From Shigella phage vB_Shig_1KOFFS, in sequence record PV615260: a DNA stretch of 48,622 bases. One strand, written 5' to 3'. The notes beneath the pieces were generated by a model, which saw only the letters and a program-made list of their open reading frames with translations, was not told where the DNA came from and did not search any database. Below, in pieces: positions 1 through 17,242 of the stretch. How positions within the stretch are numbered: the first letter of the stretch is position 1; each line of letters begins with the position of its first letter. Made by a program: the position numbers and the translations under genes.

Positions 1-18
1 CGCTGAGTATTTTGCAAA

Positions 19-92
19 ACAGCACTAATTGCTAAATAATGCCCGCCGCGAGCGGGTATTATTACCCCATCAACCAATCAGGAGCTAACGCC
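19..92 (+). promoter_or_regulatory. Conserved promoter-like cassette (copy 1): CAGCAC-N5-TGCTAAA box, 22-bp GC hairpin spacer, TATTAT
   Basis: Dyad-like box followed by hairpin gcccgccgcgagcggg, -10-like TATTAT, then RBS GGAG and ATG at 93. Confidence 0.5.
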
Positions 93-329
93 ATGAACAC
101 CAAAACCATTGCAGACACCATCAAGATTGTACCAGCAAAAGCGCAAGTAGTATCGCGCCACCTGGTTAACCTTTCTCGCCTGTGCATGGCCGACTACATG
201 GCGAACCCTTCAGAGAATGGCCTTGATGGTGTAGTCGGTGAGATTTATTTTCGCGCAGGTTACGGCCTGGAAAGTGTGGCCATGTATGAGCAAATGGCCG
301 AAGGTTTTTGCATTTACGGTGACGAATGA
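93..329 (+). CDS. hypothetical protein (78 aa)
   Basis: ORF with ATG at 93 preceded by GGAG; the ORF-track start at 39 lies inside the upstream regulatory cassette. Confidence 0.55.
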   Translation: MNTKTIADTIKIVPAKAQVVSRHLVNLSRLCMADYMANPSENGLDGVVGEIYFRAGYGLESVAMYEQMAEGFCIYGDE

Positions 330-577
330 TGATTGTCGAGACTGGTCGCGCTGCCGTATGGCAGCACGCTAAAGAAGCAGGAATAAGTGATGATATCGTG
401 AAGATCGCAAAGTATTTCGATATAAAGGATATCTCCATCGTGTTCGGCGGGAAGTTTACTTACCTCCACGAGCGCCCGGTGAAGCGCACGCGAATAGCAG
501 TGGCAACGCGAGCGGAGGCGGACGCGCTGAAGATGTTCATCCACGAGTCGAAGCAGCAGAAGAAATATTACAAGTAG
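326..577 (+). CDS. hypothetical protein (83 aa)
   Basis: ORF whose ATG overlaps the upstream stop (ATGA coupling). Confidence 0.5.
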   Translation: MMIVETGRAAVWQHAKEAGISDDIVKIAKYFDIKDISIVFGGKFTYLHERPVKRTRIAVATRAEADALKMFIHESKQQKKYYK

Positions 578-672
578 CGGGGAGGTGAAGAATGCGATAT
601 ATTGCGATCTTATTTACGGCGATTCTATTCACGATCGCAATCATTAACTATGCAATTCAATTGGGATAAATT

Positions 673-1803
673 ATGTCACCTAAAATCACAGACGAAGAAT
701 TCCTGGCCGCCCGCGAAGAAGGTAAAACATACCGCGAGATCGCGGAAGAGTTCGGCATGAACATTCGAAGCGTTGAACGTCGCGGCGTTCGCCTGGCGCG
801 ACAAGGACACCTACACGGAAACGCCCACGTTGCGAAGCATATCCCGGACGGCTTCGGCGTCAAAGGCACGTCGACGATGATTCGCGCGGACGGCTCCGAG
901 GTCGTTCGGTGGGTCAAGTCGGAAGTAGACCGCGATCGCATGGTCGCGCTTATGGAGGCAGCGCAGGCGGCTTTCTGCGAAGACCTTCCGCGAGCCGAAC
1001 CGCAACCGCTGGATGAATCGAAGTTCTACATTGAAGATCAGCTTGCCCTGTACCCGATCTTCGACTTGCATATTGGGGCAATGGCGCATAAGCATGAATG
1101 CGGCGAGAACTATGATACCAGCACGGCAGAGAAGGTTCTAAACCGCTTCTTTGATTATTCCGTTTCGGTTGCTCCGCAATCACAAAAGGCGGTTTTGTTG
1201 GTCGGCGGTGACTTCCTTCACAGTGACGGCCTGGACGCAGTAACCCCGGCAAGCGGTCACGTTCTCGATCAGGACAGCCGATACGCAAAACTTGTTTATG
1301 TTGCCATTCGTTCGCTGCGTCGCGCCGTTTCGCTACTGCTTAACAATCATGCAGAAGTTGAAGTGCAGGTGATTGAAGGCAACCACGACCAGGCCGGGAT
1401 GATCTGGCTACGCGCAGCGCTGGCGGCGTTCTATGAGAATGAACCGCGCGTTTTCGTTGATGTTAGTCCGGCGATCCTGCATCGCACCTTGTGGGGCAAA
1501 ACCATGCTGGGATATACTCATGGCCACACGATGAAAAAGCCGGAAACGCGCCTTGCTGCGATGGCTACCGACTTCCGTAAGGAGTTCGGCCAGTGCGACT
1601 ACATTTACACGCATTCCGGCCACTGGCATCACCAGACTGTAACGGAACACTCGTTAGGCATTGACGAAGTGCATGGCCAGTTGGGCGCAAAAGATGCCTA
1701 CGCAGCACGCGGCGGATGGCGATCATATCGGCAGGCTGCGGTGATTCTGTACAGCAAAGAATATGGCGAAGTAGGTCGCTTTATCTATCGCCCGAACATG
1801 TAA
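673..1803 (+). CDS. Calcineurin-like metallophosphoesterase with N-terminal helix-turn-helix domain
   Basis: Phosphoesterase motifs DLHIG, GGDFLHSDG and GNHD in order; N-terminal segment TYREIAEEFGMNIRSVERR resembles a sigma region-4 type HTH. Confidence 0.6.
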   Translation: MSPKITDEEFLAAREEGKTYREIAEEFGMNIRSVERRGVRLARQGHLHGNAHVAKHIPDGFGVKGTSTMIRADGSEVVRWVKSEVDRDRMVALMEAAQAAFCEDLPRAEPQPLDESKFYIEDQLALYPIFDLHIGAMAHKHECGENYDTSTAEKVLNRFFDYSVSVAPQSQKAVLLVGGDFLHSDGLDAVTPASGHVLDQDSRYAKLVYVAIRSLRRAVSLLLNNHAEVEVQVIEGNHDQAGMIWLRAALAAFYENEPRVFVDVSPAILHRTLWGKTMLGYTHGHTMKKPETRLAAMATDFRKEFGQCDYIYTHSGHWHHQTVTEHSLGIDEVHGQLGAKDAYAARGGWRSYRQAAVILYSKEYGEVGRFIYRPNM

Positions 1804-1841
1804 CCACAACGGCCCCGCGAGGGGCCAACAAGGAAAAACCG

Positions 1842-2330
1842 ATGAATAGAAATATCTGCATTTTCGATCTCGATGGCACGCTTTCAGACGGAACCCACCG
1901 CTTGCACCTGCTGCCGAAAAAAGATCTCCACCTTACAGAAAGTTGGAGCGAATTTAATGGCGCGTCAATTGGAGACAGCCCAATCCAAAGCACTATTGAC
2001 GTGGCGAATGCGCTTTATCGATCCGGAATGACCGTTATCATCCTGACTGGCCGATCCGATGAGGTGAAGACCGAAACAATGATTTGGCTTGACCGCTACG
2101 GGGTGAAATATGACAGCCTAATCATGCGCCGCGCCATCGATAACCGTAAAGACACGGTAATCAAGGAGGAGGAGTTACGCAAAATCGGGCTTGATCGCAT
2201 TGTTGCGGCATGGGATGATTCACCAAATGTTATTGCGCACTTTCGCGGCCTGGGTATTACGACTTACCAGGTCTGCGACTACGGCGACAATCTTCAGGAT
2301 CATTTAAAATCTCACGGAGTAGACAAATGA
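1842..2330 (+). CDS. HAD-superfamily phosphatase (possible 5-prime deoxynucleotidase)
   Basis: N-terminal FDLDGTL (DxDxT) motif; ATG at 1842 preceded by AAGGA. Confidence 0.6.
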   Translation: MNRNICIFDLDGTLSDGTHRLHLLPKKDLHLTESWSEFNGASIGDSPIQSTIDVANALYRSGMTVIILTGRSDEVKTETMIWLDRYGVKYDSLIMRRAIDNRKDTVIKEEELRKIGLDRIVAAWDDSPNVIAHFRGLGITTYQVCDYGDNLQDHLKSHGVDK

Positions 2331-2908
2331 AAAATGTAATTATCCTCAACGGAGCGCCGGGCATCGGAAAGGACACTATCGCGGAAATCATCTCGCGGAA
2401 GTGGCAATACAAGAACCTTAGCTTCAAACAGCCGATGTTTGCCATTGCTCGTGCTGTGCTGGGATCGGCTGATTTTGCACGCTTTACTGCCCGATACCAC
2501 GACCGCAAGCACAAAGAAGTGAAATGCGATTTTTTGGGCGACCGTTCTCCGCGTGAATTCATGATTCACATTAGCGAAAATTTCGTCAAGCCGACCCTGG
2601 GCAAAAATCAGTTCGGCAAGTTGCTTTGCGATTCAGCGCTAACCTCGCCGTTTAACTGCATCGTCAGCGACGGCGGATTCGATGAGGAGGTGGAGCACGT
2701 CGCAGCGCATGAGGCGCTTAACGTGTTTGTCGTCCGCCTTCATCGTGACGGCATGACATTTGAGGGTGATAGCCGCAAGCATATTCGACGCCAGGATCTG
2801 ATTTGCGACACTTACCATGAACTCGATTTTGATATGACCACTGGCGAGCCGGAAGACGACGCGCAAAAAATCCTTGATATGGTGTCAGATGTTGCATTAA
2901 AATTATAA
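2327..2908 (+). CDS. P-loop kinase, dNMP kinase-like
   Basis: Walker A GAPGIGKDT at N-terminus; overall pattern resembles T4 gp1 dNMP kinase from memory; start overlaps upstream stop. Confidence 0.55.
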   Translation: MKNVIILNGAPGIGKDTIAEIISRKWQYKNLSFKQPMFAIARAVLGSADFARFTARYHDRKHKEVKCDFLGDRSPREFMIHISENFVKPTLGKNQFGKLLCDSALTSPFNCIVSDGGFDEEVEHVAAHEALNVFVVRLHRDGMTFEGDSRKHIRRQDLICDTYHELDFDMTTGEPEDDAQKILDMVSDVALKL

Positions 2909-2942
2909 AGTTAATGCCTTTATTATCACCACCTTAACGATT

Positions 2943-2970
2943 GGGAACCTTGATGGGTTCCCTTTTTTTT
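2943..2970 (+). terminator. Rho-independent terminator
   Basis: Stem GGGAACC / GGTTCCC with loop ttgat, followed by T8. Confidence 0.75.
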
Positions 2971-3034
2971 GTTCTTAATTTGGCCTAATGCATATATCAT
3001 CACCTTACCATTTAACTAACAGAGGTTGCATATC

Positions 3035-3250
3035 ATGCGAGAATTCATCAACGCGGCAACCAATAGCAGCGGTGGCGTTGCCCTCGCGGGATCTGCAACC
3101 GGGCAATTAATCATTGCTGCCATTGGCTTATTTTTCATGATTCTATTCGGCTCCTTCGGCGCGTGGTTGCGCTGGCGAGATTCAAAGGCGCTTCGTGAAG
3201 CGCTGGAAGTCGGGGATATCAAAACGGCGATGAAGATCAGGAGTAAATAA
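3035..3250 (+). CDS. Holin, probably pinholin
   Basis: 71-aa product with long hydrophobic N-terminal region and charged C-terminus, immediately upstream of a SAR endolysin; RBS AGAGG. Confidence 0.6.
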
Positions 3251-3251
3251 C

Positions 3252-3734
3252 ATGGGGATTAAAACGCGGGTTACATTCGCGGCGGCGGTGGCGATCGCGG
3301 TCGCGTTCCTCCCCGAAGTGGAGGACACGAAATACAATGTTTATATGGATATCGCTGGCGTCCCGACAGTATGCGAAGGCATCACAGGCCCGGACGTTAT
3401 CAAGGGGAAAACCTATACCCGGTCAGAGTGCGACGCGCTTTTAACCAAGCATATCCAGGTGGCGAAGCGAACCGTTGACAGCAAAATCAAAGTCGATGTT
3501 CCGGATACCTTCAGGGCGTCGATGTACAGCTTCACGTTCAACGTTGGCGGCGGCGCGTATTCTGGCAGCACCATGCTGAAATTAACGAACCAGGGCCGAT
3601 TGCGCGAGGCGTGCGAGCAGCTATATCGCTGGACGTACTACCGCAACCCGAAAACGGGAAAGATGGAGAAGTCGAAAGGCTTGTATAATCGCCGGGTTCA
3701 GGAATATCAACTATGCATTAAGGATCTGAAATGA
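3252..3734 (+). CDS. SAR endolysin (GH24 lysozyme)
   Basis: Hydrophobic N-terminal signal-anchor-release segment ([15 protein letters not shown]) followed by the canonical E-x8-D-x5-T catalytic triad ([16 protein letters not shown]). Confidence 0.8.
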
Positions 3735-4156
3735 GCACATTAAACTTTCAACGAGCGCTGGCCATCGGCTTTATCGTGTGGGCGGCTGCCGTTGTTTCCG
3801 GTTGCGCGTCAAGCGTCCCAATCCTTTCCGATCTGGTTGGTAGCAAGCCGGATATGACGGCGCAAGTAGGCGCGGAGAACGTGAAACAGGCGGTTGGCGT
3901 GACCAACAAAACGGACACGTCGAGCAGGCAGGAGACCACGTTTAAGGAGTCGGCTGTAGGTAAAGTTGACACGTCGAACAAGAAATCCGTAACGACCTCC
4001 AGCATTCACGCCAACCAGATCACGGCGGACAAGATCGAGATCCGTAATGATGAAAGCGGAAGCCTGGTTCCGTGGCTGATTGGTAGCATTGGGGTAGTAA
4101 TGCTGGCTATCGGGGTGTTCGGTATTTGGCGGGAACGAAAAAATAAAGGGGCGTAA
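3731..4156 (+). CDS. Unimolecular spanin (lipoprotein with C-terminal transmembrane domain)
   Basis: Signal peptide with lipobox VVSGC at N-terminus and hydrophobic helix [22 protein letters not shown] at C-terminus, as in T1 gp11. Confidence 0.75.
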
Positions 4157-4168
4157 TGCCCCTTTTTC
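4146..4168. terminator. Bidirectional rho-independent terminator
   Basis: Stem GGGGC/GCCCC with loop gtaat, flanked by an A-run upstream and a T-run downstream; ends the + lysis operon and the - accessory operon. Confidence 0.75.
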
Positions 4169-4690
4169 TATATGTACCGCTTGACGTGCAATAGCGCTAC
4201 TCCATCTTCATCGTTAAGACCATGTTCAACCGTGTTGGTTGCGGCCATTCCTTGATAGAGCAAGATGAGCGCGGCACGCAAGTAATTTTCTGGTGTGATC
4301 TGTTTCACGCAAACAAGCCTGTGAACTTCCGTTATCAGATCTTCCACCTGGTTTCCCGAAAAGCTGTTCATCACTGAGTTGGTCAAGGTGCATCATCTCC
4401 CACATATATCGGTTATTCATCCCTTCGAACGACCGGAAATCAAAGCCTATCTCCCTGTTATCCGGCCCCGTACACCACACAGCGCCGTTTTTTCCGTCAA
4501 GGTATCCATTCGTATAGCTTCGCGCTAAAAACTCCTTAGAGACCATTGAGGCGAACATACGTTGCGACACGTTGGCAGCTTTTGCCAGGCGAGGCGCTTC
4601 GCGGTGCATGTAAACGAACTTCGCAAAATCCTGCCGGGTGAACTCCCGGCGAGATTCGCAGAACTTGTAAATGTCAAGAATGAACATCAA
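4168..4690 (-). CDS. hypothetical protein with apparent frameshift
   Basis: ORF 4226-4690 and ORF 4168-4386 overlap in different frames; protein-like composition switches frame near the A4/T4 run at 4359-4362. Confidence 0.4.
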
Positions 4691-6259
4691 TTACCTCATG
4701 AACGACGGGTTGATAAAGACTTCGGAATCCATCACGCAGATAAAGCCTAATTCCTCCATCTTCGGCAATAAGCGTTCCTTAATCTTTTTGCTCACCCCAG
4801 CCTGGCCTTTGAAGATCTTCAGGTTGCGGCAGGCGTTATAAATGCCCTGGACGGTCATAACACCTTTTGCCTGCTTGCAACGACTGGCGATAACGTCATA
4901 CAGCGCTTTAATTTCCGCGCCCTCACCAGCAAATCCGGAAGAGTCAGCAGATGACAGGTAAGTTTTGCTCAACTCATGGAACATGATGATCGCTTCGTCA
5001 ATGGTTGCCGTGTCGATCTTCTTCGAACGCTTACCGCCGGGTTGCCAGTTCCGGATCGTGTGGATTACCGACGCCAGACGCATAACCTGCTTATCAAACT
5101 TACCCATCGCGCCGCGAAGCATAGTATGCGAATACTTGCCGCCGTCACCTAACTCAGGTTCTAATTCCTGGCGGGCCTTATTCAGTCTCCGCATTGCCGC
5201 GTCAGTAACCTGCAACTTAATGTTCGACTCGCTCATAATGTCATGAATCAGCCGGAAGTAATCCGCCTTCAGTGACTGGTCGATCGGCTCATAGGTCGAA
5301 TTCCCGTTTTCGTCGATGAACACGCGTTCGCCCAAACGTGTTTGCTCACGAACCAAAAGGAAACGCTCCGAGACACCGATCCCGCGAGAACCCGCTTGCA
5401 TGATGGCGTCGATGGTTTCATCCTGGGCAATTACGCAAATGCAGCCCAAAGCAACGAATGACATATTATTGCTAACGTCGGCACGAGCGATCGACACGTG
5501 GCCTTTATCCCATGCTTTGAGCACCAGTTCGCTGTTCGTCTTCTTGCCGCCATCGTTGCCATACGTGATCCCCAAAAGGCTGTTAACCGCAGTTGCCTCA
5601 TCGGAAATAACGGCAAAGTTTCCCTGGCGGTTGTTAATCTTCGCCAGACCTTCCGGGGTGGTATCGGATACCGGGAAAGTTAGGTCACACAATTTTTCAA
5701 GTTTCTCTTCCAGTTCGTCACGATCTTCGAAAAGTTTCACCATATCAGATTGCGACAACTCCCCTTTAAGCGCCTGCTTGTTGGCGGACAACTTCGCCAT
5801 GATTTTCTTACGCTCCTTCTTGCGCGACTCGTTAATGCGCTCGACTTCGGCCACGATCGGATCGATGGCCAGCGAGTTAATGGCAGACTTACCAGCGGAA
5901 GGCGGCTGCGACGTGATAACGTAAAGCGTCGTCGGTTGCTCACTGCCGTGATACTCGACCCAAAAGCGACCCATCATCGCGGCGGATACGGTTCCGAGAA
6001 AGTGCATGTAAGCGGATGATTCCGGGAACTGAACAGATCTGGCGGCATTGAGCGCCAGCTTGCCGACCACATCGTAATCATTGGCGATCGAGATTGTTGG
6101 GTATTTATCCGCGTTTACGTCGATATCTTTGGGCTTTGGCCAGAATGAAACGGAGTCACGATACCCGTTCGCACGAATCGCAACGCGCAGAGGACTGATC
6201 CCCTCCCTTTCTGCGATGGCGATAATATCTTGCGGTGATACGCGGTCATTTAAAAACAT
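4691..6259 (-). CDS. Large P-loop NTPase-like protein of unknown function (522 aa)
   Basis: Walker A-like PPSAGKS and Walker B-like AVISDEAT; RBS CAGGAGCAAGGG before ATG at 6259. Confidence 0.55.
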   Translation of the reverse strand: MFLNDRVSPQDIIAIAEREGISPLRVAIRANGYRDSVSFWPKPKDIDVNADKYPTISIANDYDVVGKLALNAARSVQFPESSAYMHFLGTVSAAMMGRFWVEYHGSEQPTTLYVITSQPPSAGKSAINSLAIDPIVAEVERINESRKKERKKIMAKLSANKQALKGELSQSDMVKLFEDRDELEEKLEKLCDLTFPVSDTTPEGLAKINNRQGNFAVISDEATAVNSLLGITYGNDGGKKTNSELVLKAWDKGHVSIARADVSNNMSFVALGCICVIAQDETIDAIMQAGSRGIGVSERFLLVREQTRLGERVFIDENGNSTYEPIDQSLKADYFRLIHDIMSESNIKLQVTDAAMRRLNKARQELEPELGDGGKYSHTMLRGAMGKFDKQVMRLASVIHTIRNWQPGGKRSKKIDTATIDEAIIMFHELSKTYLSSADSSGFAGEGAEIKALYDVIASRCKQAKGVMTVQGIYNACRNLKIFKGQAGVSKKIKERLLPKMEELGFICVMDSEVFINPSFMR

Positions 6260-6384
6260 GCCCTTGCTCCTGATTGGTTAATCGTTCGGCTAATCATATG
6301 CCGTATTAAATCCGAGATCCAGTGATAATCTAAACACGCTTGAAAAACGCGCTTGGATTATCGGGGCGCACGGCCCCGAACCAG

Positions 6385-6822
6385 TCACAGGTATTTAGCT
6401 TCGAAAGTCGTTCCGTCCGATACACTGAAGCCAACTTCCTCGCGGTACAGCGTCCAGCGGCATCCGTCACGGTCGAAGATGTATCCAGCAACCGCACCGA
6501 GCGCACGACCGCTTTCGACCTGGTAGCGCTTGCCGACGCTGAAGGATTTTTTCATCGGGTTGCTATGGTCAAGGCCGACGCATTTTAGCGTTTTGGTTTT
6601 GAGTTCGATGAACGTCGCAATCGCCGCTCCGCCGTCGCCAGCAATAAACAACTCACCGCTAACGCCTACCGACAAAATAATGCGCTTCTTCTTCAGTTCG
6701 ACGCTGTCATATACCATCATTGACACGTTGCCTTCATCGTCGACGCGGGCGGAATAAAGGTTGTTTTCATTGATGTTAACGGCACGGCTTGACGTGCATT
6801 TAATCTTGATTGACTTCGCCAT
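6385..6822 (-). CDS. hypothetical protein (145 aa)
   Basis: ORF in the leftward operon. Confidence 0.5.
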   Translation of the reverse strand: MAKSIKIKCTSSRAVNINENNLYSARVDDEGNVSMMVYDSVELKKKRIILSVGVSGELFIAGDGGAAIATFIELKTKTLKCVGLDHSNPMKKSFSVGKRYQVESGRALGAVAGYIFDRDGCRWTLYREEVGFSVSDGTTFEAKYL

Positions 6823-7005
6823 TTATTTTCTTTCTCCCATCTCGATATACAGGTTAACCAGATCCAGAAAGTCAGCTTTATTTCTGCAACTCAATTTAAA
6901 GCCAACGTGCGACTCAATTTTATTTTGCATCGCAGCCAGTGTTGCGCCGCCATTATTCATCCTGAGAACTTCGCGGCATACTTCGGCGAGTTTTTGAGAT
7001 ATCAT
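6823..7005 (-). CDS. hypothetical protein (60 aa)
   Basis: Small ORF whose ATG overlaps the upstream stop. Confidence 0.4.
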   Translation of the reverse strand: MISQKLAEVCREVLRMNNGGATLAAMQNKIESHVGFKLSCRNKADFLDLVNLYIEMGERK

Positions 7006-7205
7006 TTTTCAATCACCCTTATTTTGATTGTTTCGCAGGCGCTTTCTATTTCGCTGATAATTCGATTCACCCTTAAATCAATCATTGTTTTATGATGGTA
7101 AATGTCAACAATGCCGACAACCGCTAACACCATGATCGAAAAGATGAGCGCACCAACCCCGTGCATGGAAAAGAGTGTGGCCATTACTGCGATCGTGAAT
7201 TTCAT
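7002..7205 (-). CDS. small membrane protein (67 aa)
   Basis: Mostly hydrophobic product (MKFTIAVMATLFSMHGVGALIFSIMVLAVVGIV); ATG at 7205 preceded by GGAG within a regulatory cassette. Confidence 0.5.
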   Translation of the reverse strand: MKFTIAVMATLFSMHGVGALIFSIMVLAVVGIVDIYHHKTMIDLRVNRIISEIESACETIKIRVIEK

Positions 7206-7280
7206 TTTGGTTTTCTCCGTTGCGTTTCTATGGGGTAATGCTACCCGACTTTCGCCGGGTAGTTTTAGCAATTCGTGCTA
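7206..7280 (-). promoter_or_regulatory. Conserved promoter-like cassette (copy on - strand)
   Basis: Reverse complement reads TAGCACGAATTGCTAAAAC, then hairpin tacccggcgaaagtcgggta, then CCCCATAGAAAC, RBS and ATG; the TAG is the stop of the upstream gene. Confidence 0.5.
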
Positions 7281-7970
7281 TTCTAGATAATTCGCCTGGA
7301 ACACGGCGCGGGCAAAACCTCGCGGAGTAATGGAGCGCAGCATTTTAGTCCTTTCTGACCTTCCGCCTAAAAACTTCCAGGCCCAAAAGAAATTCACGCC
7401 TTCCACTCCATCCGGCGGAGGGAGCCGTTTCGGTTCGACAAAACCGTTTCCGTGCCATATGCACGTTTTCTTCGTGTAATTGTCACAGTTGGGCATTTTT
7501 GGATGCCACACAGGTTCGTTTGGAGAAACATAGCCGCCGAAGTCGCGCGGGTGAAAATAGAAGTCAGGCTTTCGCCATAGTGACGACAATTTTCCAACCG
7601 GGTTTTCGACCATCCAGGGGCAACCATACTTATTGCCTAATTGCTCGACCATCTTCGCATCCCCTGCTGCGGATAATACGTCATTATCTTCCCTTACGTG
7701 CTTGATTCCGCTATGCGCTAACAGCGTGCATGACGGGAAGGCAAAAATGAAGTCGGGATCTGGAATGCCGAGAATCGATCGCTTCACGTCAAAATCCTTG
7801 TCGATCCAAATGTTAACATACTGGATATTGGGGTGAACCATTCTAATGCTGTATTCTCCGTGGTCGCCGGAGTCGGCATTGAAACAATACACCTTGCATC
7901 CCTTGATGGCCCACGGCAGGCCCATGATGCCGGAGCCGTCGAACATGCAGTAAATAACCTTGTCTTTCAT
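7278..7970 (-). CDS. Short C5-cytosine methyltransferase-like protein (230 aa)
   Basis: Motif I-like FDGSGIMG, motif IV-like FPSC and motif VI-like MVENPVG in canonical order; too short to hold a normal target recognition domain. Confidence 0.45.
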   Translation of the reverse strand: MKDKVIYCMFDGSGIMGLPWAIKGCKVYCFNADSGDHGEYSIRMVHPNIQYVNIWIDKDFDVKRSILGIPDPDFIFAFPSCTLLAHSGIKHVREDNDVLSAAGDAKMVEQLGNKYGCPWMVENPVGKLSSLWRKPDFYFHPRDFGGYVSPNEPVWHPKMPNCDNYTKKTCIWHGNGFVEPKRLPPPDGVEGVNFFWAWKFLGGRSERTKMLRSITPRGFARAVFQANYLE

Positions 7971-8193
7971 ACTTTACACGCCCCAATGAACATTCTTTTC
8001 GATTCCAGCGTCAGCGTGACGCCATCCAGGGAGGACTGAATGAGGCGACTGCCAGGAACCGTCCCGATGATGTAGCGGCCTTTCGACTTCGTGATCGTGA
8101 TCTGAGTGAAGCCGGAGGCGCGTTTCATGCGGAGAACGACGCGGCCATGCGCGTTCAGGACGGAGAGAATGTAATCAGTCTTCGGATGGTTCA
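7967..8193 (-). CDS. hypothetical protein (about 75 aa)
   Basis: ATG at 8193 preceded by AAGGAG; ORF-track N-terminal extension lacks an RBS. Confidence 0.45.
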
Positions 8194-8265
8194 TTGTGTA
8201 GCTCCTTCGTTTGTTGGTGTGGGACAGTATGCCACTATCCAGCCATGTTGTTTTAGCAAAACGTG

Positions 8266-8643
8266 CTATGCCGGAACGCAGGTCGCGTAATCTTGGCTGA
8301 TGTAGATCGTGCGCTGAACGCGAGGTTCGAGATCTCCGAGTTCCTGGATGGTAACATCGTTGCTTCCTACCCGGCACGGAACCGATCCAAAGATAAACTC
8401 GCTAGTCTGCTTGTCGTTGATTTGCCATACATTACCGCCTTCCTTTTTGACAACCAGGAAAGGCGCACTGTCTGCACTGAACTCTTCCGGGCCACGACCG
8501 TAGTAATGCGTGATCGCAGCTTTGGCCGCAGCGCTGAAGGCATCGGTAACGTCATTGGTCGCCTTGTCGCGGATGGCCTTGATACGTTCTTCAGGCGATC
8601 CGATGATGTAGGAAAAGCTGTTCGAAATGGTAACTGTTCGCAT
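8266..8643 (-). CDS. hypothetical protein (125 aa)
   Basis: ORF with RBS GAGGT before ATG at 8643. Confidence 0.5.
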   Translation of the reverse strand: MRTVTISNSFSYIIGSPEERIKAIRDKATNDVTDAFSAAAKAAITHYYGRGPEEFSADSAPFLVVKKEGGNVWQINDKQTSEFIFGSVPCRVGSNDVTIQELGDLEPRVQRTIYISQDYATCVPA

Positions 8644-8882
8644 TATATTTTAACCTCGTTTTGGTGGATGAAGTCGGCGACGTAATGGCATTCGATCGGA
8701 TTCTCGATACCCGCCAGCACCTCGCACAACCCGTTATTCAGTAGCTGGCAATGCTGGCACTCCGCGCCGCCAACACTGGCAATGACAATGGCGATCCCGT
8801 TGCATGAACCGCCGAACATTCGATGAGGGAAGGGGTAAGCATCGCAGGTGCAAACCACCTCCCCGGCTCGCAGTTTCCTCAT
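8643..8882 (-). CDS. Cys-rich small protein (79 aa), possible zinc-binding
   Basis: Seven cysteines including CTC and CQHC clusters; ATG at 8882 overlaps upstream stop. Confidence 0.45.
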   Translation of the reverse strand: MRKLRAGEVVCTCDAYPFPHRMFGGSCNGIAIVIASVGGAECQHCQLLNNGLCEVLAGIENPIECHYVADFIHQNEVKI

Positions 8883-9073
8883 ACCTGACCCTTCTCGATG
8901 CAGAAAACCCAATCACGAGCGTCAACCGCAAAGCGTGCAACGCCGTCGAGCACCACGAAGACAGTAAACCAGTTGACGCCGCGACCCTTCTCGATATCGG
9001 TTACGGTACGGAACAGATCGCTTGCGCCATATTGAATTTTATCCCCGACGACTACATCCGCAAATGCTTTCAT
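8879..9073 (-). CDS. hypothetical protein (64 aa)
   Basis: ORF directly downstream of a regulatory cassette, RBS AGGAG. Confidence 0.5.
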   Translation of the reverse strand: MKAFADVVVGDKIQYGASDLFRTVTDIEKGRGVNWFTVFVVLDGVARFAVDARDWVFCIEKGQV

Positions 9074-9148
9074 GGTTAATCTCCTGACTGGTTTCGATGG
9101 GGTAACTATACCAGGCCTTTCGGCCCGGCGTTTAGCAATTCGTGCTTA
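9074..9148 (-). promoter_or_regulatory. Conserved promoter-like cassette (copy on - strand)
   Basis: Reverse complement reads TAAGCACGAATTGCTAAACG, hairpin ccgggccgaaaggcctgg, extended -10-like TGGTATAGT, then CCCCATCGAAAC. Confidence 0.5.
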
Positions 9149-9427
9149 TTTCACTGCTTTCTTCGCTGCCTTGTACGCCTCTTTGAAAGCCGGAACATCT
9201 TCGACCGGAATCCAGAAGCCGGAGCCATAGCCATCATCGTAGCAGGGGCATTGGTCGCAGTAGTCGCCCCAGGTTTTCTCTTCGCCGCCAACAGAGAAGC
9301 CAGTGGCCATTTCGCATAACGCCTCCTCAACCGCCTCGATCTTGTCGGCGTCGCTATCCATGATAACGAAGTTCCACTTGCCGTTATACTCGCTGCCAAG
9401 GTTGATTGATTCGCGTTGAAGTTTCAT
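9146..9427 (-). CDS. acidic small protein (93 aa), first gene of leftward operon
   Basis: Asp/Glu-rich composition with CDQCPC cluster. Confidence 0.5.
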   Translation of the reverse strand: MKLQRESINLGSEYNGKWNFVIMDSDADKIEAVEEALCEMATGFSVGGEEKTWGDYCDQCPCYDDGYGSGFWIPVEDVPAFKEAYKAAKKAVK

Positions 9428-9785
9428 AGCTTTAGACCCTTTGGCTCAATTCGTTTCGTTGAAGTCATCATAGCAAAGTCGATCGGGTGGCTTTTGACAA
9501 AAAATGCTATTCCTGCGATTGCTGATTATTCCACCGATTCGGAATAGTGGAATAGATGGTGATTGCACCTGATTCCCTGGTGATTAGTTTTGACGAATCA
9601 TGATTGCTTTTGATTGTTTCATTTTGCGCAATGACTTGGTGGAGTGTTTCATGATTTGCAACGAATTGCATAAATGTATGCACCATGCACGCAATTTGCC
9701 GATCGAAGCTGGCAGAACTGGAGTTGTGTTTCACCAACATTTACGCCGTGTGGGAGTGTGGGGGAGGGATAATCTTACCTAAAAA

Positions 9786-9897
9786 TTGCGCAAAAAGCGA
9801 CCAATATAAGCCCATATATAGATAGTAAGTATATGATAAATAATAATATTATTATTATTACTCTCTATCTTTATATATGTTTGGTAAGATTTCTCAG
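9786..9897. repeat. Inverted repeat copy A (about 110 bp, 47-bp AT-rich core at 9818-9864)
   Basis: Reverse-complement match to 42604-42715; the core atagatagtaagtatatgataaataa(t/c)aatattattattattactct differs at one position. Confidence 0.85.
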
Positions 9898-10014
9898 GGG
9901 AGGTTATGGATTCCTCTTGCGCAAGCCATAATTTTTAGATGTTCCGCCGCGAAAAAATGTATATATGGATATATGGGGGATGACAGCAAATCTTCCCAAA
10001 CACGCGCAAATCCT

Positions 10015-10043
10015 TTGACACCAAGGCTTGCGGCCAGTATTAT
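10015..10043 (+). promoter_or_regulatory. Sigma70 consensus-like promoter for the rightward early operon
   Basis: TTGACA at 10015-10020, 17-bp spacer, TATTAT at 10038-10043, about 50 bp upstream of ATG 10091. Confidence 0.6.
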
Positions 10044-10090
10044 CACCTTCCGAAACATTACCAAACGCCGTAAGTGTGGGGGAAACACAA

Positions 10091-10669
10091 ATGCAATACA
10101 AAGGCTATGAGTTCGAAGAAGTCGATGTGTCCGAGTGGATGCAGTACGACGCAGAAAAGCAGGCCGCGTACCATGAATGGCTGCAATCCATCACGTTTGG
10201 TGACACCACCAGGCCAGCAGGGCGGAGCCAGGAAGCCACTAAACCTGAAGGCACATTCACTGGCAACCGCTCTTCCGAGATCCGGCGCATGTTCCTGGAT
10301 GGCGGGCGGCGTATCCAGATGACGGCGGAGGAGTTCGCGGAGAAGTTCGGCGTTCATCCGGTCGACAACCATTTCCGCAGGCCGTTGCTGAAACTCCTGG
10401 AGCCGGGCGAGGTGTTGCGCGTGAGCCTGGGGGCGGGGTTAATCTCCGTCTTTACCGAGTTCGACGCAATGACTAGCTCAAACCTGGAGGTTGAGGCATA
10501 CAGGCGGCAGGGCGCTACCTCTGAGCGGGAAAGGATTAAGGGTTTAGTGGCCGCTCTTGCCGTAGACTTTGCCGGGGATGCTCTGGCCGGGATTTACAAG
10601 GCGAACTTGTTCGCGGCTATCGATCTTGGGTTGACCGCCAGCGATATCAGCCAGCACGGCAAGCAATAG
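10091..10669 (+). CDS. hypothetical early protein (192 aa)
   Basis: ATG at 10091 preceded by GGGGGA; ORF-track extension to 10028 would overlap the promoter. Confidence 0.55.
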   Translation: MQYKGYEFEEVDVSEWMQYDAEKQAAYHEWLQSITFGDTTRPAGRSQEATKPEGTFTGNRSSEIRRMFLDGGRRIQMTAEEFAEKFGVHPVDNHFRRPLLKLLEPGEVLRVSLGAGLISVFTEFDAMTSSNLEVEAYRRQGATSERERIKGLVAALAVDFAGDALAGIYKANLFAAIDLGLTASDISQHGKQ

Positions 10670-10741
10670 CACTTTTTGTTAAAACGCGATCGGGGTGGCT
10701 TGCTATAGTAACCCCATCGAAACGAACAACGGAGCACCACA
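10667..10741 (+). promoter_or_regulatory. Conserved promoter-like cassette
   Basis: TAGCACTTTTTGTTAAAAC, hairpin GGGGTggcttgctatagtaACCCC containing TGcTATAGT, then CCCCATCGAAAC and RBS GGAG. Confidence 0.55.
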
Positions 10742-11236
10742 ATGAAATCTCGCGAATACCTAAACACCCTTAATGGCCTTATCTACTGGCTGGAAGATGA
10801 CGCAGTGATGATGCGCAAGCGCGAAGGCAATATTGTGAAGAAGTCGAATATGGCAGCGGCGATCTTCTTTGCGATGGTCGGCAACGATACACTTCTGCTT
10901 GTCGAGGCGGAGCCGGAGCAAAAGAGCATGACCATGAACGAATTCTCTAACTTCCTGGCTGGCATCGACAAGAGCACCACGACTGCAACCGCACAGACGG
11001 CCATTCAGGGCGGAGCCACCCACATTGCCATCGACGGTAACGGCGACGTCTTCGCATTCAAGATGCGCCCGCGCCCCTGCCTGCCGGATGACGACGACGC
11101 GAATGACTACCTGGGCGAATGGCTTCGCGGGTCTGAGCAGTACGGCCACATTGCGCGAACAGTCTGCTTCCTTGGCAACACTGGCCGCGAGCACCGCAAC
11201 TGGCTGGAACTCTGCTTCCAGATCCCACAGCAATAG
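10742..11236 (+). CDS. hypothetical early protein (164 aa)
   Basis: ORF downstream of cassette; contains an acidic DDDDAND stretch. Confidence 0.55.
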   Translation: MKSREYLNTLNGLIYWLEDDAVMMRKREGNIVKKSNMAAAIFFAMVGNDTLLLVEAEPEQKSMTMNEFSNFLAGIDKSTTTATAQTAIQGGATHIAIDGNGDVFAFKMRPRPCLPDDDDANDYLGEWLRGSEQYGHIARTVCFLGNTGREHRNWLELCFQIPQQ

Positions 11237-11304
11237 CACTTTTTGCTAAAACACGATCGGGGTAACGCGGTATTATTACCCCATCGAAACAGAGGAGCAA
11301 AAAC
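11234..11304 (+). promoter_or_regulatory. Conserved promoter-like cassette
   Basis: TAGCACTTTTTGCTAAAAC, hairpin GGGGTAAcgcggtatTATTACCCC, CCCCATCGAAAC, RBS GAGGAG. Confidence 0.55.
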
Positions 11305-11517
11305 ATGATTGGCAACCACAACAACGAACTGAACGCAGCAGCACACCGTCGCGCAGTCGAGCAGAACTTCAACGCGCTTAAAGCAGCCTGCGATGAGATG
11401 AAAGCAATGCTTGAACTGCCGTCATGGGATCCCCAACTCGAAGACTACTATGACGGCCTCCGCGTCAAGCGTGACGATATCATCAACCGCCTGCGCCTGG
11501 CTGGAATGTTCCTGTAA
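11305..11517 (+). CDS. hypothetical early protein (70 aa)
   Basis: ORF downstream of cassette. Confidence 0.5.
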   Translation: MIGNHNNELNAAAHRRAVEQNFNALKAACDEMKAMLELPSWDPQLEDYYDGLRVKRDDIINRLRLAGMFL

Positions 11518-11527
11518 GGAGAACGCA

Positions 11528-11848
11528 ATGATTCACGAAGTTAAATCCGGCGAGCAAGTAGTGGCCACCATCACGCAGCGCCACGTTGTAGCCTTCCAGA
11601 TTAACATCCCTGGCACGTTCGATATGCAGTCGCTTGACGTGCCAGTTTGGGCCAACACGGTTGCCATTGATGCCGACGGCTCGATTTGGGCCTATGAGTC
11701 GACCGTTGAAAATGTTCGCCTGCTGAGTTACTCGCCTGATTCATGGGTGGATAAGGGGCCGGGCGGAAACAAAATGGTTCAGGTGGGCGAAATGGCTCGT
11801 TTCCCTGATTGGGCAAAATCGAAGATTGACCTTCGCGGCCTGAAATAG
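11528..11848 (+). CDS. hypothetical early protein (106 aa)
   Basis: ATG at 11528 preceded by GGAG. Confidence 0.5.
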   Translation: MIHEVKSGEQVVATITQRHVVAFQINIPGTFDMQSLDVPVWANTVAIDADGSIWAYESTVENVRLLSYSPDSWVDKGPGGNKMVQVGEMARFPDWAKSKIDLRGLK

Positions 11849-11934
11849 CACGCATTGCTAAACGCCAGGTCAGTGGATCGGGCATAATTATCACGAAGTC
11901 GATTAACGACCAAATTATGCAAGGAGACAGGATA
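11845..11934 (+). promoter_or_regulatory. Conserved promoter-like cassette
   Basis: TAGCACGCATTGCTAAAC, 22 bp, CATAAT, then RBS AGGAG before ATG 11935. Confidence 0.5.
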
Positions 11935-12192
11935 ATGCAGCAATTCAAATCTCGCGGCAGGGTATACAGCCTGCCAGATACCGCAACTCATGCCGCGCCA
12001 GGCGTATGCGTCGGCCTTTACTTCATGGATTGCGGCAAATGGTTCTTCATTGGCGACCTGGTGACGGATGATGTTAAGCCGCTACTTTGCGGCAAACATC
12101 GCGGATTCTTCGATCACGATATCGTGGAGCTGAAGCCGAAGCGCAATCCGTTTGGTTTCTGGAACAAAATCAAAGTGGCGATTTTCAAATGA
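11935..12192 (+). CDS. hypothetical early protein (85 aa)
   Basis: ATG at 11935 with RBS AAGGAG. Confidence 0.5.
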   Translation: MQQFKSRGRVYSLPDTATHAAPGVCVGLYFMDCGKWFFIGDLVTDDVKPLLCGKHRGFFDHDIVELKPKRNPFGFWNKIKVAIFK

Positions 12193-12386
12193 ACCAATTC
12201 GAATTCCTGGCGCGGGCGCACCGTGCGCTTGCAATGTACGCCTTCAGCAAGAACATGAAGATTATCAGTATTGAGGTTGAGTTCAACAATATCAGCATTT
12301 CCGGCTATGTTGGCGGCTCGTACCACGTTACAAAATTCAGCTTCCCATCGCTGGCCAGCCTGGAGCGTGAGGCGCTCGGTTTCTGA
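12189..12386 (+). CDS. hypothetical early protein (65 aa)
   Basis: ATG overlaps upstream stop. Confidence 0.45.
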   Translation: MNQFEFLARAHRALAMYAFSKNMKIISIEVEFNNISISGYVGGSYHVTKFSFPSLASLEREALGF

Positions 12387-12459
12387 ATAGCACTTTTTGC
12401 TAAACGCCCGGTCAGGAGATCGGGCATAATGGCCATACACCAAACAACGGAGATTAACC
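12387..12459 (+). promoter_or_regulatory. Conserved promoter-like cassette
   Basis: TAGCACTTTTTGCTAAAC directly after stop TGA, 22 bp, CATAAT, RBS GGAG. Confidence 0.5.
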
Positions 12460-12786
12460 ATGATTCGCACTACCAGGCCGCTACCCAATAACCTTTACGC
12501 CACGATTGGGATTCGCGCGGTGATACTGATTCACGTCAACGAAGTTGGCAACGTGGCTGTTTTGTGGTTTGAGCGCCACTCAAGCGGGGTTGGCCTGAGC
12601 ATTGAAAGAGTCGGGCGCTTTGACGGCAGATCACGAACTCATTCTCATTGGGTTGATGGCTCCTGCTGCTGGACGCACGTTAAGCACGCCGAGAACTTCG
12701 ACGCCAAATCACTGAGCGACGACGACGCCTGGAAGATGGTAACAGATCTCTTTGGTTATGATTCCTGCATGGAGGTAGTAGGATGA
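12460..12786 (+). CDS. hypothetical early protein (108 aa)
   Basis: ORF downstream of cassette. Confidence 0.5.
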   Translation: MIRTTRPLPNNLYATIGIRAVILIHVNEVGNVAVLWFERHSSGVGLSIERVGRFDGRSRTHSHWVDGSCCWTHVKHAENFDAKSLSDDDAWKMVTDLFGYDSCMEVVG

Positions 12787-13085
12787 TACGTTTATCAGAC
12801 TTCGATCGCCACTGCTTAACCGGGCAATTTGGCGAAAAGCCAGTGATGTGCAAGATCTCGAAGGTTAAGGGCGACCCCGTCGAGAAGGTCAATACGCTTA
12901 AAGGCCTGGCAATGCGCAACCGACTTTACATCCAGGTTCGCGGCGGACTGTTCGCAATGCAGGTTCATTTTTCGCATGGGACGTGGTTCTACACTGGCGG
13001 AGACGGGGTTGGCCCATCGCCGAAAAGGGTTATGCTGCGTGAGATAATCGAACGCGGCTACGTTTGGACTAACGGGATCTACTAA
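12783..13085 (+). CDS. hypothetical early protein (100 aa)
   Basis: RBS GGAGG; start overlaps upstream stop. Confidence 0.5.
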   Translation: MIRLSDFDRHCLTGQFGEKPVMCKISKVKGDPVEKVNTLKGLAMRNRLYIQVRGGLFAMQVHFSHGTWFYTGGDGVGPSPKRVMLREIIERGYVWTNGIY

Positions 13086-13330
13086 TGGAAACAGTAACAG
13101 TGATTTGCACCCATGCGGGTTACGGGCCACTTATTCCGCTGTTCACGGTGGGTAAGGAGTATCAAGCCAGGTTCGGCCCCGGCCTTGATGAAGTCTGGAT
13201 TTTGCAGGACGACAAGAAAACAACGGAGTTGGGAGAAAACTGGTTAGCGTGCCGTATGCCGGACGAAAAGATAGCGATGTTTCTTAACAGACCATATGAA
13301 AACAACGTTATATTTGAGGTGAAAGTATGA
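13085..13330 (+). CDS. hypothetical early protein (81 aa)
   Basis: ATG overlaps upstream stop (TAATG). Confidence 0.5.
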   Translation: METVTVICTHAGYGPLIPLFTVGKEYQARFGPGLDEVWILQDDKKTTELGENWLACRMPDEKIAMFLNRPYENNVIFEVKV

Positions 13331-13512
13331 AAGTAAGCAAAAAGAAACTCGCGCTGTATTGGGCCTTCTTCTTGGTTGGCCTGGCGCTGCATGATAATGT
13401 AGACTGGCATCCGGTCGGCATGATTTGCATCATCATCGGGTTATGCCGACTGTCAGAGATTGACGGGTTCCGCCGTGGATATAGGGCAGCGTTCAGCGGC
13501 GAAAAAAAATAG
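13327..13512 (+). CDS. small membrane protein (61 aa)
   Basis: Two hydrophobic segments (LALYWAFFLVGLAL and VGMICIIIGL). Confidence 0.45.
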   Translation: MKVSKKKLALYWAFFLVGLALHDNVDWHPVGMICIIIGLCRLSEIDGFRRGYRAAFSGEKK

Positions 13513-13591
13513 CACTTTTTGTTAAAACTGCCGTAACGTCATTTGATAAAGTGGCGTTACTGAAGTGAACAATCCAATCAGGAGCAACGCA
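13510..13591 (+). promoter_or_regulatory. Conserved promoter-like cassette (variant hairpin)
   Basis: TAGCACTTTTTGTTAAAAC, hairpin CGTAACG..CGTTAC, TGATAAAGT, RBS AGGAG. Confidence 0.45.
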
Positions 13592-13810
13592 ATGAACGAC
13601 AATTTAATCGCACTGCTGGAAGAACTGAATTCCTACGGCTGTGCATACATCGAGCTTTCGAGCGAGCAGGTTATTGAAGTCGCAATCGACGATGACGCCG
13701 GGTTCACCAGATTAAGGGTGGCGGCAGGGGCCGAAGAGGAATTCGAGGACTGCGGCATCCGTGAAGTAACTAACCTTCTCGAAGTTCACCAGGTGAAGGA
13801 GATCCGCTAA
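13592..13810 (+). CDS. hypothetical early protein (72 aa)
   Basis: ATG at 13592 after RBS CAGGAG. Confidence 0.5.
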   Translation: MNDNLIALLEELNSYGCAYIELSSEQVIEVAIDDDAGFTRLRVAAGAEEEFEDCGIREVTNLLEVHQVKEIR

Positions 13811-14298
13811 TGAACACCGTCAAACTTATGGTTGTCAACGTGGCCCGCGAACGTGAACGCCACCTTATCGGCTGCGTATTCGATGCCGTCGAGGTTCGCG
13901 ATCCGCTCGGAATGGCTCGCGTAATCAATGGCGGATACCTTAACGAATTCATCATCAACCCGCTTGATACTGACGAAGACTTGACCATCCGTGTTGGTGG
14001 CGAGCCGGAAAACGCGCTTTTCCACCTGCGGAAAGTATCGAAGGCGTCGCAGCGCAAGTTGCTGGTTCGCGCACTGAAGCGCATTGCGAAGGAGCGCGGT
14101 TACACCGACGCATACATCCGCAAGTTCGGCACGTTCGCTGGCGTCGGAGATTGGGCGCGATCCTGGGCCGACTTATACTTCGATAAATCCGGCAAATTCT
14201 GTTCCGCGCATACGGACTGGCTGCATGGAACCGAACACGATCCAGTTAGCGGCCACGAGTGGTACGAATTCATTGAGGATGGATTAGACGCCCTTTGA
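13810..14298 (+). CDS. hypothetical early protein (162 aa)
   Basis: ORF whose start overlaps upstream stop. Confidence 0.55.
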   Translation: MNTVKLMVVNVARERERHLIGCVFDAVEVRDPLGMARVINGGYLNEFIINPLDTDEDLTIRVGGEPENALFHLRKVSKASQRKLLVRALKRIAKERGYTDAYIRKFGTFAGVGDWARSWADLYFDKSGKFCSAHTDWLHGTEHDPVSGHEWYEFIEDGLDAL

Positions 14299-14373
14299 TA
14301 GCACGAATTGCTAAAACGAACGTCCGGGGATGGTGCATACTATCCCCACACCAACGAACAAAGGAACTCACAC
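14299..14373 (+). promoter_or_regulatory. Conserved promoter-like cassette
   Basis: TAGCACGAATTGCTAAAAC, hairpin GGGGAtggtgcatactATCCCC, RBS AAGGAA. Confidence 0.5.
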
Positions 14374-14976: not shown

Positions 14977-15041
14977 CACGAACCACAAACACTAACCGGG
15001 TTTGCTGCATGGCTACCCCGCCAAAGACAAGGAAAAACATC
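14975..15041 (+). promoter_or_regulatory. Degenerate copy of the promoter-like cassette
   Basis: Starts TAGCACGAA and contains GGCTACCCC but lacks the TGCTAAA half. Confidence 0.3.
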
Positions 15042-15233: not shown

Positions 15234-15269
15234 GATGGCGTTTGTGTTCCAAAGTGGATAGCCAGCAAA

Positions 15270-16128: not shown

Positions 16129-16197
16129 CGAAATCTAATACCGTTTAAAGCGCCTGTAAGCCATTCTGGCGGGCGCAAATTTAAGGAGTGCGATTGT

Positions 16198-17235: not shown

Positions 17236-17242
17236 CAAAAGA

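Follow-up and report, generated by a model that had tools for sequence, protein, structure and literature searches.

A conserved Webervirus gene array in Shigella phage vB_Shig_1KOFFS joins variable small genes to a predicted core helicase module

Introduction

T1-like phages (Drexlerviridae) carry a 21-base intergenic repeat, aaATAGCACnnnTTGnTAAAA, reported for TLS, T1 and Rtp; a study of TLS names its function as an open question and states that, among the early products, those responsible for host shutoff and host-DNA degradation in these phages have yet to be identified (PMC11447400). Moreover, DUF3987 proteins, which these phages encode, have been classed as phage superfamily-6 (SF6), MCM-related replicative helicases that are typically paired with a primase (Kazlauskas et al., 2016; PMC4889955), and for one member of the family, AgaPH, 5'-3' helicase activity has been demonstrated (PMC11724360). 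The Dcm methyltransferase of K42, a KarlJaspers-like member of Drexlerviridae, is encoded by a 711-bp gene, has the catalytic residues C82, E128, K175 and K176 together with a DNMT3A-like model, produces 5-methylcytosine (5mC) at CCWGG in the msDNA of retron Ec86, as detected by liquid chromatography coupled to mass spectrometry (LC-MS), and triggers Ec86; K42 mutants that escape this retron lose the dcm gene (bioRxiv 10.1101/2023.08.16.553469). Here we compare with these systems an array of eleven minus-strand genes from Shigella phage vB_Shig_1KOFFS (sequence record PV615260). All coordinates refer to the whole 48,622-nt stretch of DNA that was analyzed, called the window below, and the genes are named from g1, at the 9427 end, to g11, at the 4226 end.

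Results

The array is a known and conserved arm of Weberviruses

Weberviruses are among the commonest Klebsiella phage isolates and are considered for therapy, and it is this genus (Drexlerviridae, T1-like) that accounts for nearly all records matching the 5.26-kb region. Matches were found in 401 phage records, 329 of them with at least 80% coverage, nearly all from Klebsiella phages and with a best identity of 96-97%; more than 300 sequenced Weberviruses possess the array at 95-97% nucleotide identity. The annotated relatives NJS1 and AttikonH6 possess the same eleven one-strand genes between the holin-endolysin-spanin cassette and the linear end of the record. The array is also homologous to genes ST1-ST10 of T1 (right end of NC_005833), with equivalent arms in Rtp, JulesPiccard, SH2 and tonn, and in all of these the order is the same: small open reading frames (ORFs), then a gp07 homologue, the DUF3987 helicase (gp09) and a gp10 homologue. 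Likewise, at the terminator they converge with the holin-endolysin-spanin cassette. The array diverges from a small-gene operon that runs toward the terminase. Given these annotated relatives and homologous arms, the region is a conserved Webervirus gene array that is already present in databases, and it does not constitute a new kind of system. On the T1-type map, it is located at the right end, adjoining the pac/terminal-redundancy region. Most probably, it represents the leftward non-structural arm of Weberviruses, composed of small variable cassettes and a core helicase module.

The comparison also reveals differences, since the small upstream genes mostly differ between Drexlerviridae genera, T1 has an HNH endonuclease beside its helicase, and Rtp-like phages possess neither the methyltransferase nor the overlapping 67-amino-acid (aa) gene described below.

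The original prediction, which had been made from the letters of the window, placed eleven minus-strand genes upstream of a terminator, and our analyses bear this out. Each of the eleven ORFs, running from 9427 to about 4226, was assigned a PHROG family and is under purifying selection (ratio of non-synonymous to synonymous substitution rates, dN/dS, 0.02-0.28 against clade-2 Weberviruses), and the array ends at a hairpin, AAAGGGGCGTAATGCCCCTTT, with T-runs on both sides:

4145..4165, no strand assigned: bidirectional intrinsic terminator common to the array and the convergent lysis cassette

The T1 record has a terminator annotated at the equivalent position. This terminal hairpin was the exception in a generic promoter/terminator scan, in which the number of hits was otherwise not above that in shuffled sequence.

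The distal third is built around a putative replicative helicase

The three promoter-distal genes are the following:

6385..6822, minus strand: g9, 145 aa, homologue of T1 gp07 (phrog_2684), directly upstream of the helicase gene
4691..6259, minus strand: g10, 522 aa, putative DUF3987/superfamily-6 (MCM-related) replicative helicase, from Pfam, PHROG and Walker motifs
4226..4687, minus strand: g11, 153 aa as an open frame, core member of the T1 gp10 family (phrog_2794)

The g9-g10-g11 block was present in every Drexlerviridae locus examined, including T1, Rtp and the Vibrio-phage relatives, and was universal in a gene-order map of 47 loci. Its central member, g10, matches Pfam DUF3987 over residues 79-424 (133.8 bits, cut-off 27) and phrog_2373 (1e-246), and a full-length homologue was found in 1145 phage records (Klebsiella, Escherichia, Salmonella and Vibrio phages). 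In this product the original prediction had rightly seen a P-loop protein of 522 aa: K124 of Walker A (GKS) and both S219 and E221 of Walker B (SDE) are invariant in nine sequences that reach down to 25% identity. In the Vibrio-phage relatives, the helicase gene lies beside that of a DNA primase or shares its operon; the window encodes a DnaG-type primase with a Zn_Ribbon_Prim domain at 42846-43805, not adjacent to g10, with which the g10 helicase would presumably partner. Like other DUF3987/SF6 helicases (Kazlauskas et al., 2016; AgaPH, PMC11724360), g10 combines a strong Pfam match with invariant Walker A/B residues and a primase in the same genome, but it is a stand-alone protein with no PriCT or primase fusion, and the Webervirus primase gene lies about 37 kb off. 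Two points weigh against the assignment: searches of the PDB with the single sequence and with a nine-sequence profile returned no solved relative of g10, and the helicase function depends on family membership. By that membership, g10 is a predicted DUF3987/SF6 replicative helicase, and it is core to Drexlerviridae.

The gene upstream of the helicase, g9, was found in all loci, with 39-68% identity in other genera, and an exhaustive HMMER search grouped its relatives in about 23 clusters containing only small phage proteins; long multi-domain matches in that search turned out to be tetratricopeptide-repeat (TPR) or low-complexity noise. Conservation of g11 covers only the first ~110 residues and ends at SDEQLFG. 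The synteny of both genes with g10 suggests that they may have a helicase-associated role. As judged from sequence, the distal third of the array (g9-g11 with the overlapping 67-aa gene) is a family-wide core module around the replicative helicase. The original prediction had allowed that the genes might turn out by homology to be ordinary replication proteins, and for this third of the array homology does point there, with g10 an SF6 helicase and g9-g11 universal.

Gene content varies in the promoter-proximal two-thirds

Upstream of the core module, the gene-order map shows a different picture. Upstream of g1, clade-2 Weberviruses have as many as three or four additional genes, and usually another two lie between their g5 and g6. 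In five clade-2 loci (L008, L025, L027, L030 and L039), an insert of 1-1.4 kb upstream of g1 holds up to four small genes (phrog_29074, 4423, 36412 and 13365) and is bounded by two copies of the ~62-nt repeat element that precedes g1; neither Pfam nor PHROG scans yielded a function for the clade-2 extra genes. In AttikonH6 (L002, 5600-6300), a cassette encoding a Dam-like, D12-class methyltransferase is placed between g4 and the g4/g5 repeat element, and the 5' end of its gene is apparently split by an A8 run, reading MKYMGSKARFKKKNS* with a restart at MGEIG. Two Webervirus loci from IMG/VR (L018 and L031) possess, in place of g6, a ~190-aa HNH/endonuclease-VII-like protein (phrog_1035), and in other genera the small upstream genes are different altogether. 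Insertions and deletions are concentrated upstream of g1, at g4/g5 and at g5/g6, and alleles have been replaced in g5 and g7. Additionally, g4, g5 and g7 evolve at 3-10 times the rate of their neighbors (dN/dS ~0.26, compared with 0.03 for the helicase). Since the upstream gene content changes among the 47 loci while g9-g11 are universal, the term accessory fits only g1-g8, i.e., the promoter-proximal two-thirds of the array.

g6 is an intact member of a compact Dcm family

Self-methylation is a classic route of restriction evasion, and one gene of the array encodes a candidate enzyme:

7278..7970, minus strand: g6, 230 aa, predicted compact Dcm-type C5-cytosine DNA methyltransferase, from phrog_757, homologue lengths and predicted structure

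The original prediction described this product as a truncated methyltransferase-like protein. However, g6 is not truncated, since its homologues, at least 854 in number, are all ~215-245 aa long; the family occurs in 1486 phage records. Among 36 diverse homologues, D11, G12, S13 and G14 of motif I (F10-D11-G12-S13-G14) are invariant and F10 is nearly so (Y in a few), and motifs IV (P79-x-C81) and VI (E122-N123-P124-V125) are invariant throughout. Motif IV reads FPSCT, as opposed to the classical PC, and C81 is the catalytic Cys; the family also conserves K167-K168 and a C-terminal TPRGFARAV. Structure prediction, which had been suggested as a check on the original prediction, was run on g4 and g6. 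For g4 it led away from a relationship to Ocr (see below). The AlphaFold2 (AF2) model of g6 is of high quality (predicted local distance difference test, pLDDT, 89.7; predicted template modeling score, pTM, 0.88), and its top 47 Foldseek matches in the PDB are the catalytic domains of DNMT3A/B/C (E 2e-8 to 2e-5, probability 1.0, TM ~0.55).

The closest characterized relative is K42 Dcm, which g6 resembles in being a predicted C5-cytosine methyltransferase of ~230 aa with a DNMT3A-like predicted fold, its gene having the same place in the operon, ahead of that for the helicase. Residues C81, E122 and K167-K168 of g6 correspond to C82, E128 and K175-K176 of K42 Dcm. We compared g6 with a 236-aa protein of tonn that shares the residue numbering of K42 Dcm and its operon position; the two are 48% identical (E 2e-71), with the four residues aligned. 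The differences are that identity to K42 Dcm reaches only ~48%, as measured against this tonn orthologue, and that the segment between K167-K168 and TPRGFARAV diverges. Because this segment differs, CCWGG specificity cannot be assumed for g6.

Several observations weigh against assigning g6 as a C5-methyltransferase or against its supposed benefit. Searches of Pfam (even at E<1), NCBIfam and the PDB, by phmmer and with a 36-sequence profile, returned nothing, and PF00145 is precomputed for one of the 120 g6 homologues listed; the family is too divergent for the sequence models of Pfam and NCBIfam, and the assignment depends on the predicted structure and on homology to the characterized relative. 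Moreover, for Drexlerviridae the BASEL study saw no straightforward correspondence between methyltransferase genes and resistance to restriction. On the strength of fold and motifs, we nonetheless regard g6 as an intact member of the characterized family of compact phage Dcm enzymes, with predicted activity. By analogy with its 48%-identical relative, from which activity, target site and benefit are all inferred, g6 would most likely methylate phage DNA during replication, and the progeny would then escape restriction that is sensitive to cytosine methylation. CCWGG, the Dcm/EcoRII site, occurs 130 times in the whole window compared with 63 +/- 7 in dinucleotide-preserving shuffles; this roughly two-fold over-representation is compatible with a protected site but is not diagnostic of one. 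To judge by K42, the enzyme family is also a liability, being sensed as a trigger by retron Ec86. The annotation "DNA methyltransferase" in Weberviruses therefore stands for an intact, predicted Dcm-type enzyme of a family that may both evade restriction and trigger Ec86, which bears on the prediction of host range.

Seven small proteins of the accessory part

The remaining genes of the promoter-proximal part are as follows:

9146..9427, minus strand: g1, 93 aa, isoelectric point (pI) 4.39, DUF5417/T4 Frd.1 family, from Pfam
8879..9073, minus strand: g2, 64 aa, Weberviruses only (phrog_10894; dN/dS ~0.07)
8643..8882, minus strand: g3, 79 aa, with 7 Cys (phrog_5016)
8266..8643, minus strand: g4, 125 aa, fast-evolving and Drexlerviridae-specific, characterized by its predicted fold
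7967..8194, minus strand: g5, 75 aa, basic, pI 10.7 (phrog_4344; dN/dS ~0.28)
7002..7205, minus strand: g7, 67-aa membrane protein (phrog_10763, "membrane protein"; dN/dS ~0.26)
6823..7005, minus strand: g8, 60 aa, Weberviruses only (phrog_10436)

Three of these had been singled out in the original prediction, and all three are as described: the acidic protein with a CDQCPC cluster is g1, with the cluster at residues 57-62 (C38 and C60 are invariant in the alignment and C57 nearly so), the Cys-rich 79-aa protein is g3, and the tiny membrane protein is g7, with a hydrophobic stretch of ~30 residues. Recognizable motifs had been credited to the methyltransferase-like and P-loop products only; this proved too narrow, as g1 is also a member of Pfam DUF5417 (158.7 bits against a threshold of 23.9, 4e-47, positions 1-90 of 91). 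Homologues of g1 occur in 1415 phage records, mostly from T4-like phages, and the one in RB18 is annotated as Frd.1. Like T4 Frd.1, g1 is a full-length member of the family, with 42-73% identity to the T4-like homologues, but it heads a T1-like accessory array, whereas the T-even gene sits between gene 32 and frd. With a net charge of -8 over 93 aa, g1 is by its sequence only mildly acidic, and it is a widely exchanged small gene. It is preceded by one repeat element and is not the first gene in clade-2 Weberviruses. A search for literature on DUF5417 found none.

Among the others, g3 has homologues with 47-56% identity in two loci (L037 and L043) and probably binds metal; for g2, g3 and g8, no informative matches were found beyond the PHROG family. 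Both g5 and g7 exist as two divergent alleles within the genus (~49% and ~86% identity for g5, ~49% and ~70-91% for g7). The identity of g4 within the genus spans 56-98%, with dN/dS ~0.26. Its residues 1-49 match residues 3-51 of T7 Ocr (PF08684, PDB 1S7Z) locally, including ...AAxxAxxHYY. We rejected g4 as an Ocr homologue: the match is weak (E 0.04-0.13) and below threshold (14.8 bits against 25), the profile search gave E 0.13 against PDB 1S7Z, and the predicted fold, a strand, a long helix and a five-stranded sheet, differs from the helical bundle of Ocr. Moreover, g4, with a net charge of -3, is not strongly acidic. A PADLOC scan of ten products of the array returned nothing.

A second conserved frame overlaps the 3' end of g11

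The original prediction listed a frameshifted gene at the end of the array. We found there two conserved frames, g11 and the following:

4168..4371 (or 4386), minus strand: alt72, candidate overlapping gene of ~67 aa (ATG at 4371) or 72 aa (TTG at 4386) in the +1 frame relative to g11, from tblastn, codon positions and phrog_9539

The alt72 translation retrieved homologues by tblastn in six distant lineages, in the +1 frame every time, and it matches phrog_9539 (E 1.4e-14), a family of free-standing 64-aa proteins. Within the overlap, 34 distinct Webervirus sequences place 17 of 31 variable sites at the third codon position of alt72 and 7 of 31 at that of g11; dN/dS of alt72 is 0.15. Since selection acts on the second frame within the overlap and this frame matches phrog_9539, an unannotated overlapping gene of ~67 aa is more likely, on this comparative evidence, than a frameshift. 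Alternatively, g11 and the downstream frame might be one protein, produced by programmed +1 ribosomal frameshifting or divided by a fixed frameshift mutation. The constant +1 relationship in six genera-level lineages, with the downstream frame always abutting or overlapping g11, agrees with such an explanation, but we find it improbable: the length of the overlap varies from ~8 to ~50 codons, the downstream frame has its own conserved GTGATG start region as well as free-standing relatives, and no conserved slippery site was seen at the junction. Moreover, in Rtp-like phages g11 occurs alone, ending ...DDELFG*, with the second frame lacking; the g11 homologues of Rtp, JulesPiccard and L041 stop at ...DDELFG/S. 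This probable overlapping gene is conserved, and it is missing from the Webervirus GenBank records inspected, which makes it a result at the level of annotation.

Dyad repeats with a fixed promoter-like geometry divide the array

One shared element, each time with a -10-like hexamer exactly 22 nt downstream and a CA at the expected start site, is present in three ~72-nt gaps (g1/g2, g4/g5 and g6/g7) and in the g1 leader:

9450..9511, minus strand: repeat element upstream of g1, variant dyad repeat ATAGCATTTTTTGTCAAAA, with TATGAT 22 nt on, read from sequence
9074..9145, minus strand: repeat element g1/g2, CACGAATTGCTAAAC, hairpin with a GNRA loop, then TATAGT, from motif search
8195..8265, minus strand: repeat element g4/g5, CACGTTTTGCTAAAAC, with CATACT 22 nt past the TTGCTA half-site, from motif search
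7206..7277, minus strand: repeat element g6/g7, exact CACGAATTGCTAAAAC, hairpin with a GAAA loop, then TAGCAT, from motif search

Allowing up to three mismatches, CACGAATTGCTAAAAC occurs nine times in the window (0.54 expected). In eight cases, the copy points in the direction of local transcription and abuts a stop codon directly; the remaining one (47728-47743), with three mismatches, is probably due to chance. The repeats correspond to the 21-nt Drexlerviridae consensus and lie ~70-76 nt before start codons, and they agree with the published repeats of TLS (PMC11447400) in consensus, in orientation with transcription and in position before start codons. Further copies on the plus strand are located at about 20, 10667, 11234, 11846, 12388, 13510, 14299, 15270, 44296 and 47324. 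The repeats are found almost wholly in the non-structural arms.

The repeat box is a dyad, TAGCA-N5-TGCTA. We examined 80 forward copies, all distinct, from 11 genomes or loci: in 68 of them a hexamer (T/C)AnnnT follows exactly 22 nt downstream and in seven more at 23 nt, no other offset exceeding 9 of 80; the reverse-orientation control gave 2 of 41. Conservation also extends to a G at -14 and to CA where -1/+1 would be expected, with the start codon 26-41 nt further on; the spacers often fold into GC-rich hairpins with GNRA loops. Three points are new with respect to the published description, namely the dyad symmetry, the hexamer at a fixed distance (85% of the 80 copies) and the conservation of G at -14 and of CA at -1/+1; they give the family's unexplained 21-nt element a fixed, promoter-like geometry. 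The dyad centers near -42, a position that fits promoters in which a bound factor replaces the -35 element. Against a promoter reading stand the distance of 22 nt from the TTGCTA half-site, which is too long for a sigma-70 -35/-10 pair, and the alternatives that the box may need an additional factor or may act as an operator or "stoperator." Two specific readings were rejected: TTGCTA as a sigma-70 -35 element is inconsistent with the fixed 22-nt spacer, and of a sigma-32-like CCCCAT only CA is conserved. An Rfam scan of window positions 1-17500 (E<=1) gave only sub-threshold noise, and the repeats belong to no known RNA family; no literature on Drexlerviridae transcriptomics, transcription or injection order was found.

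The original prediction treated the array as a single operon. Its eleven genes do run co-directionally to the terminator, but four promoter-like repeat elements split them, and the array probably possesses several promoters rather than constituting one operon. The resulting transcription units would be nested and would share the terminator at 4145-4165 as their common end.

Before the helicase gene, a gap of 125 nt (6260-6384, minus strand) is without the dyad repeat and contains a GC hairpin (GGGGCCGTGCGCCCC) without a U-tract. A 32-codon ORF at 6290-6388 (minus strand) is annotated only in AttikonH6.

Discussion

Our analyses divide the array into a promoter-proximal part, which is variable, and a core module around the helicase. 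This division bears on the proposal, put forward in the original prediction, that all eleven genes together form an anti-defence or host-takeover island whose first, acidic products are DNA mimics or inhibitors of restriction. The proposal holds for g1-g8 insofar as these genes are accessory, variable and methyltransferase-bearing, and it fails for g9-g11, which are core and replication-linked. Variable gene content, the fast evolution of g4, g5 and g7, the accumulation of methyltransferase cassettes in the array, the weak Ocr match of g4, and the lack of assigned early genes for host shutoff and host-DNA degradation in T1-like phages all speak in its favor, as does an anti-restriction-modification (anti-RM) gene that AntiDefenseFinder reported in clade-2 Weberviruses and that may lie in the insert upstream of g1. 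As for the first products, we see no sign of a DNA mimic: g1 has a charge of only -8 and belongs to a family common to the nucleotide-metabolism region of T4, and the Ocr match of g4 is contradicted by a model unlike the helical bundle of Ocr. The methyltransferases (g6 and the Dam-like enzyme of AttikonH6) were the only candidate anti-defence genes that PHROGs, Pfam and PADLOC revealed in the region, PADLOC and other annotations giving no match, and in the KlebPhaCol analysis no anti-defence gene was found in the clade that lacks the extra upstream genes. Altogether, we consider it unlikely that the block as a whole is such an island.

A somewhat better case can be made for g1-g5, g7 and g8 being neutral or selfish cargo (morons) or minor developmental regulators in a recombination-prone region, with no role against immunity. 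Cassettes are gained and lost beside repeats, as illustrated by the clade-2 insert with its flanking duplicated element and by the Dam-like methyltransferase inserted directly upstream of a repeat element in AttikonH6; an HNH-type endonuclease replaces g6 at two loci, and g1 has been exchanged between T4-like and T1-like phages. However, purifying selection acts on all of these genes (dN/dS 0.05-0.28), and most of them are kept in nearly all of ~40 Webervirus loci, which argues for a contribution to fitness. We regard the cargo explanation as possible but doubtful. Preferring the reading of the region as a Webervirus arm of variable cassettes and a core helicase module, we propose g1-g5, g7 and g8 as candidates for roles in host shutoff, host-DNA degradation or anti-defence in T1-like phages. 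As the helicase block would belong to core replication, the search for these functions narrows here to seven small proteins, among which g4, g5 and g7 appear most promising.

The repeat elements may connect these observations. The clade-2 insert, flanked by two copies, hints that the repeats also serve as recombination joints. A candidate for a repeat-binding protein is encoded at 43881-44282 (minus strand): this conserved 133-aa, Cro/YdaS-like helix-turn-helix (HTH) protein is 53% identical to T1 ST23, a "transcriptional regulator," and the repeat copy at 44296 lies directly upstream of its gene, between it and the divergent HNH/helicase operon. Tentatively, we speculate that the array is a rack of cassettes (g1; g2-g4; g5-g6; g7-g9), each with its own dyad-repeat promoter, that a phage factor, possibly the Cro/YdaS-like protein, reads the repeats, and that the repeats act as joints at which T1-like phages exchange anti-defence or host-takeover cassettes. 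The candidates for swapped cassettes would be g4, g5, g7, the methyltransferases and the clade-2 extra genes. If true, such an arrangement would explain the 21-base repeats and lead to the host-shutoff genes that are still missing for these phages.

In the operon divergent from the Cro/YdaS-like gene, a gene resembling homing endonucleases, with HNH_3 and AP2 domains (44305-44886, plus strand), is located directly upstream of the gene for a 679-aa helicase; T1 has its HNH genes elsewhere, one of them beside its DUF3987 helicase.

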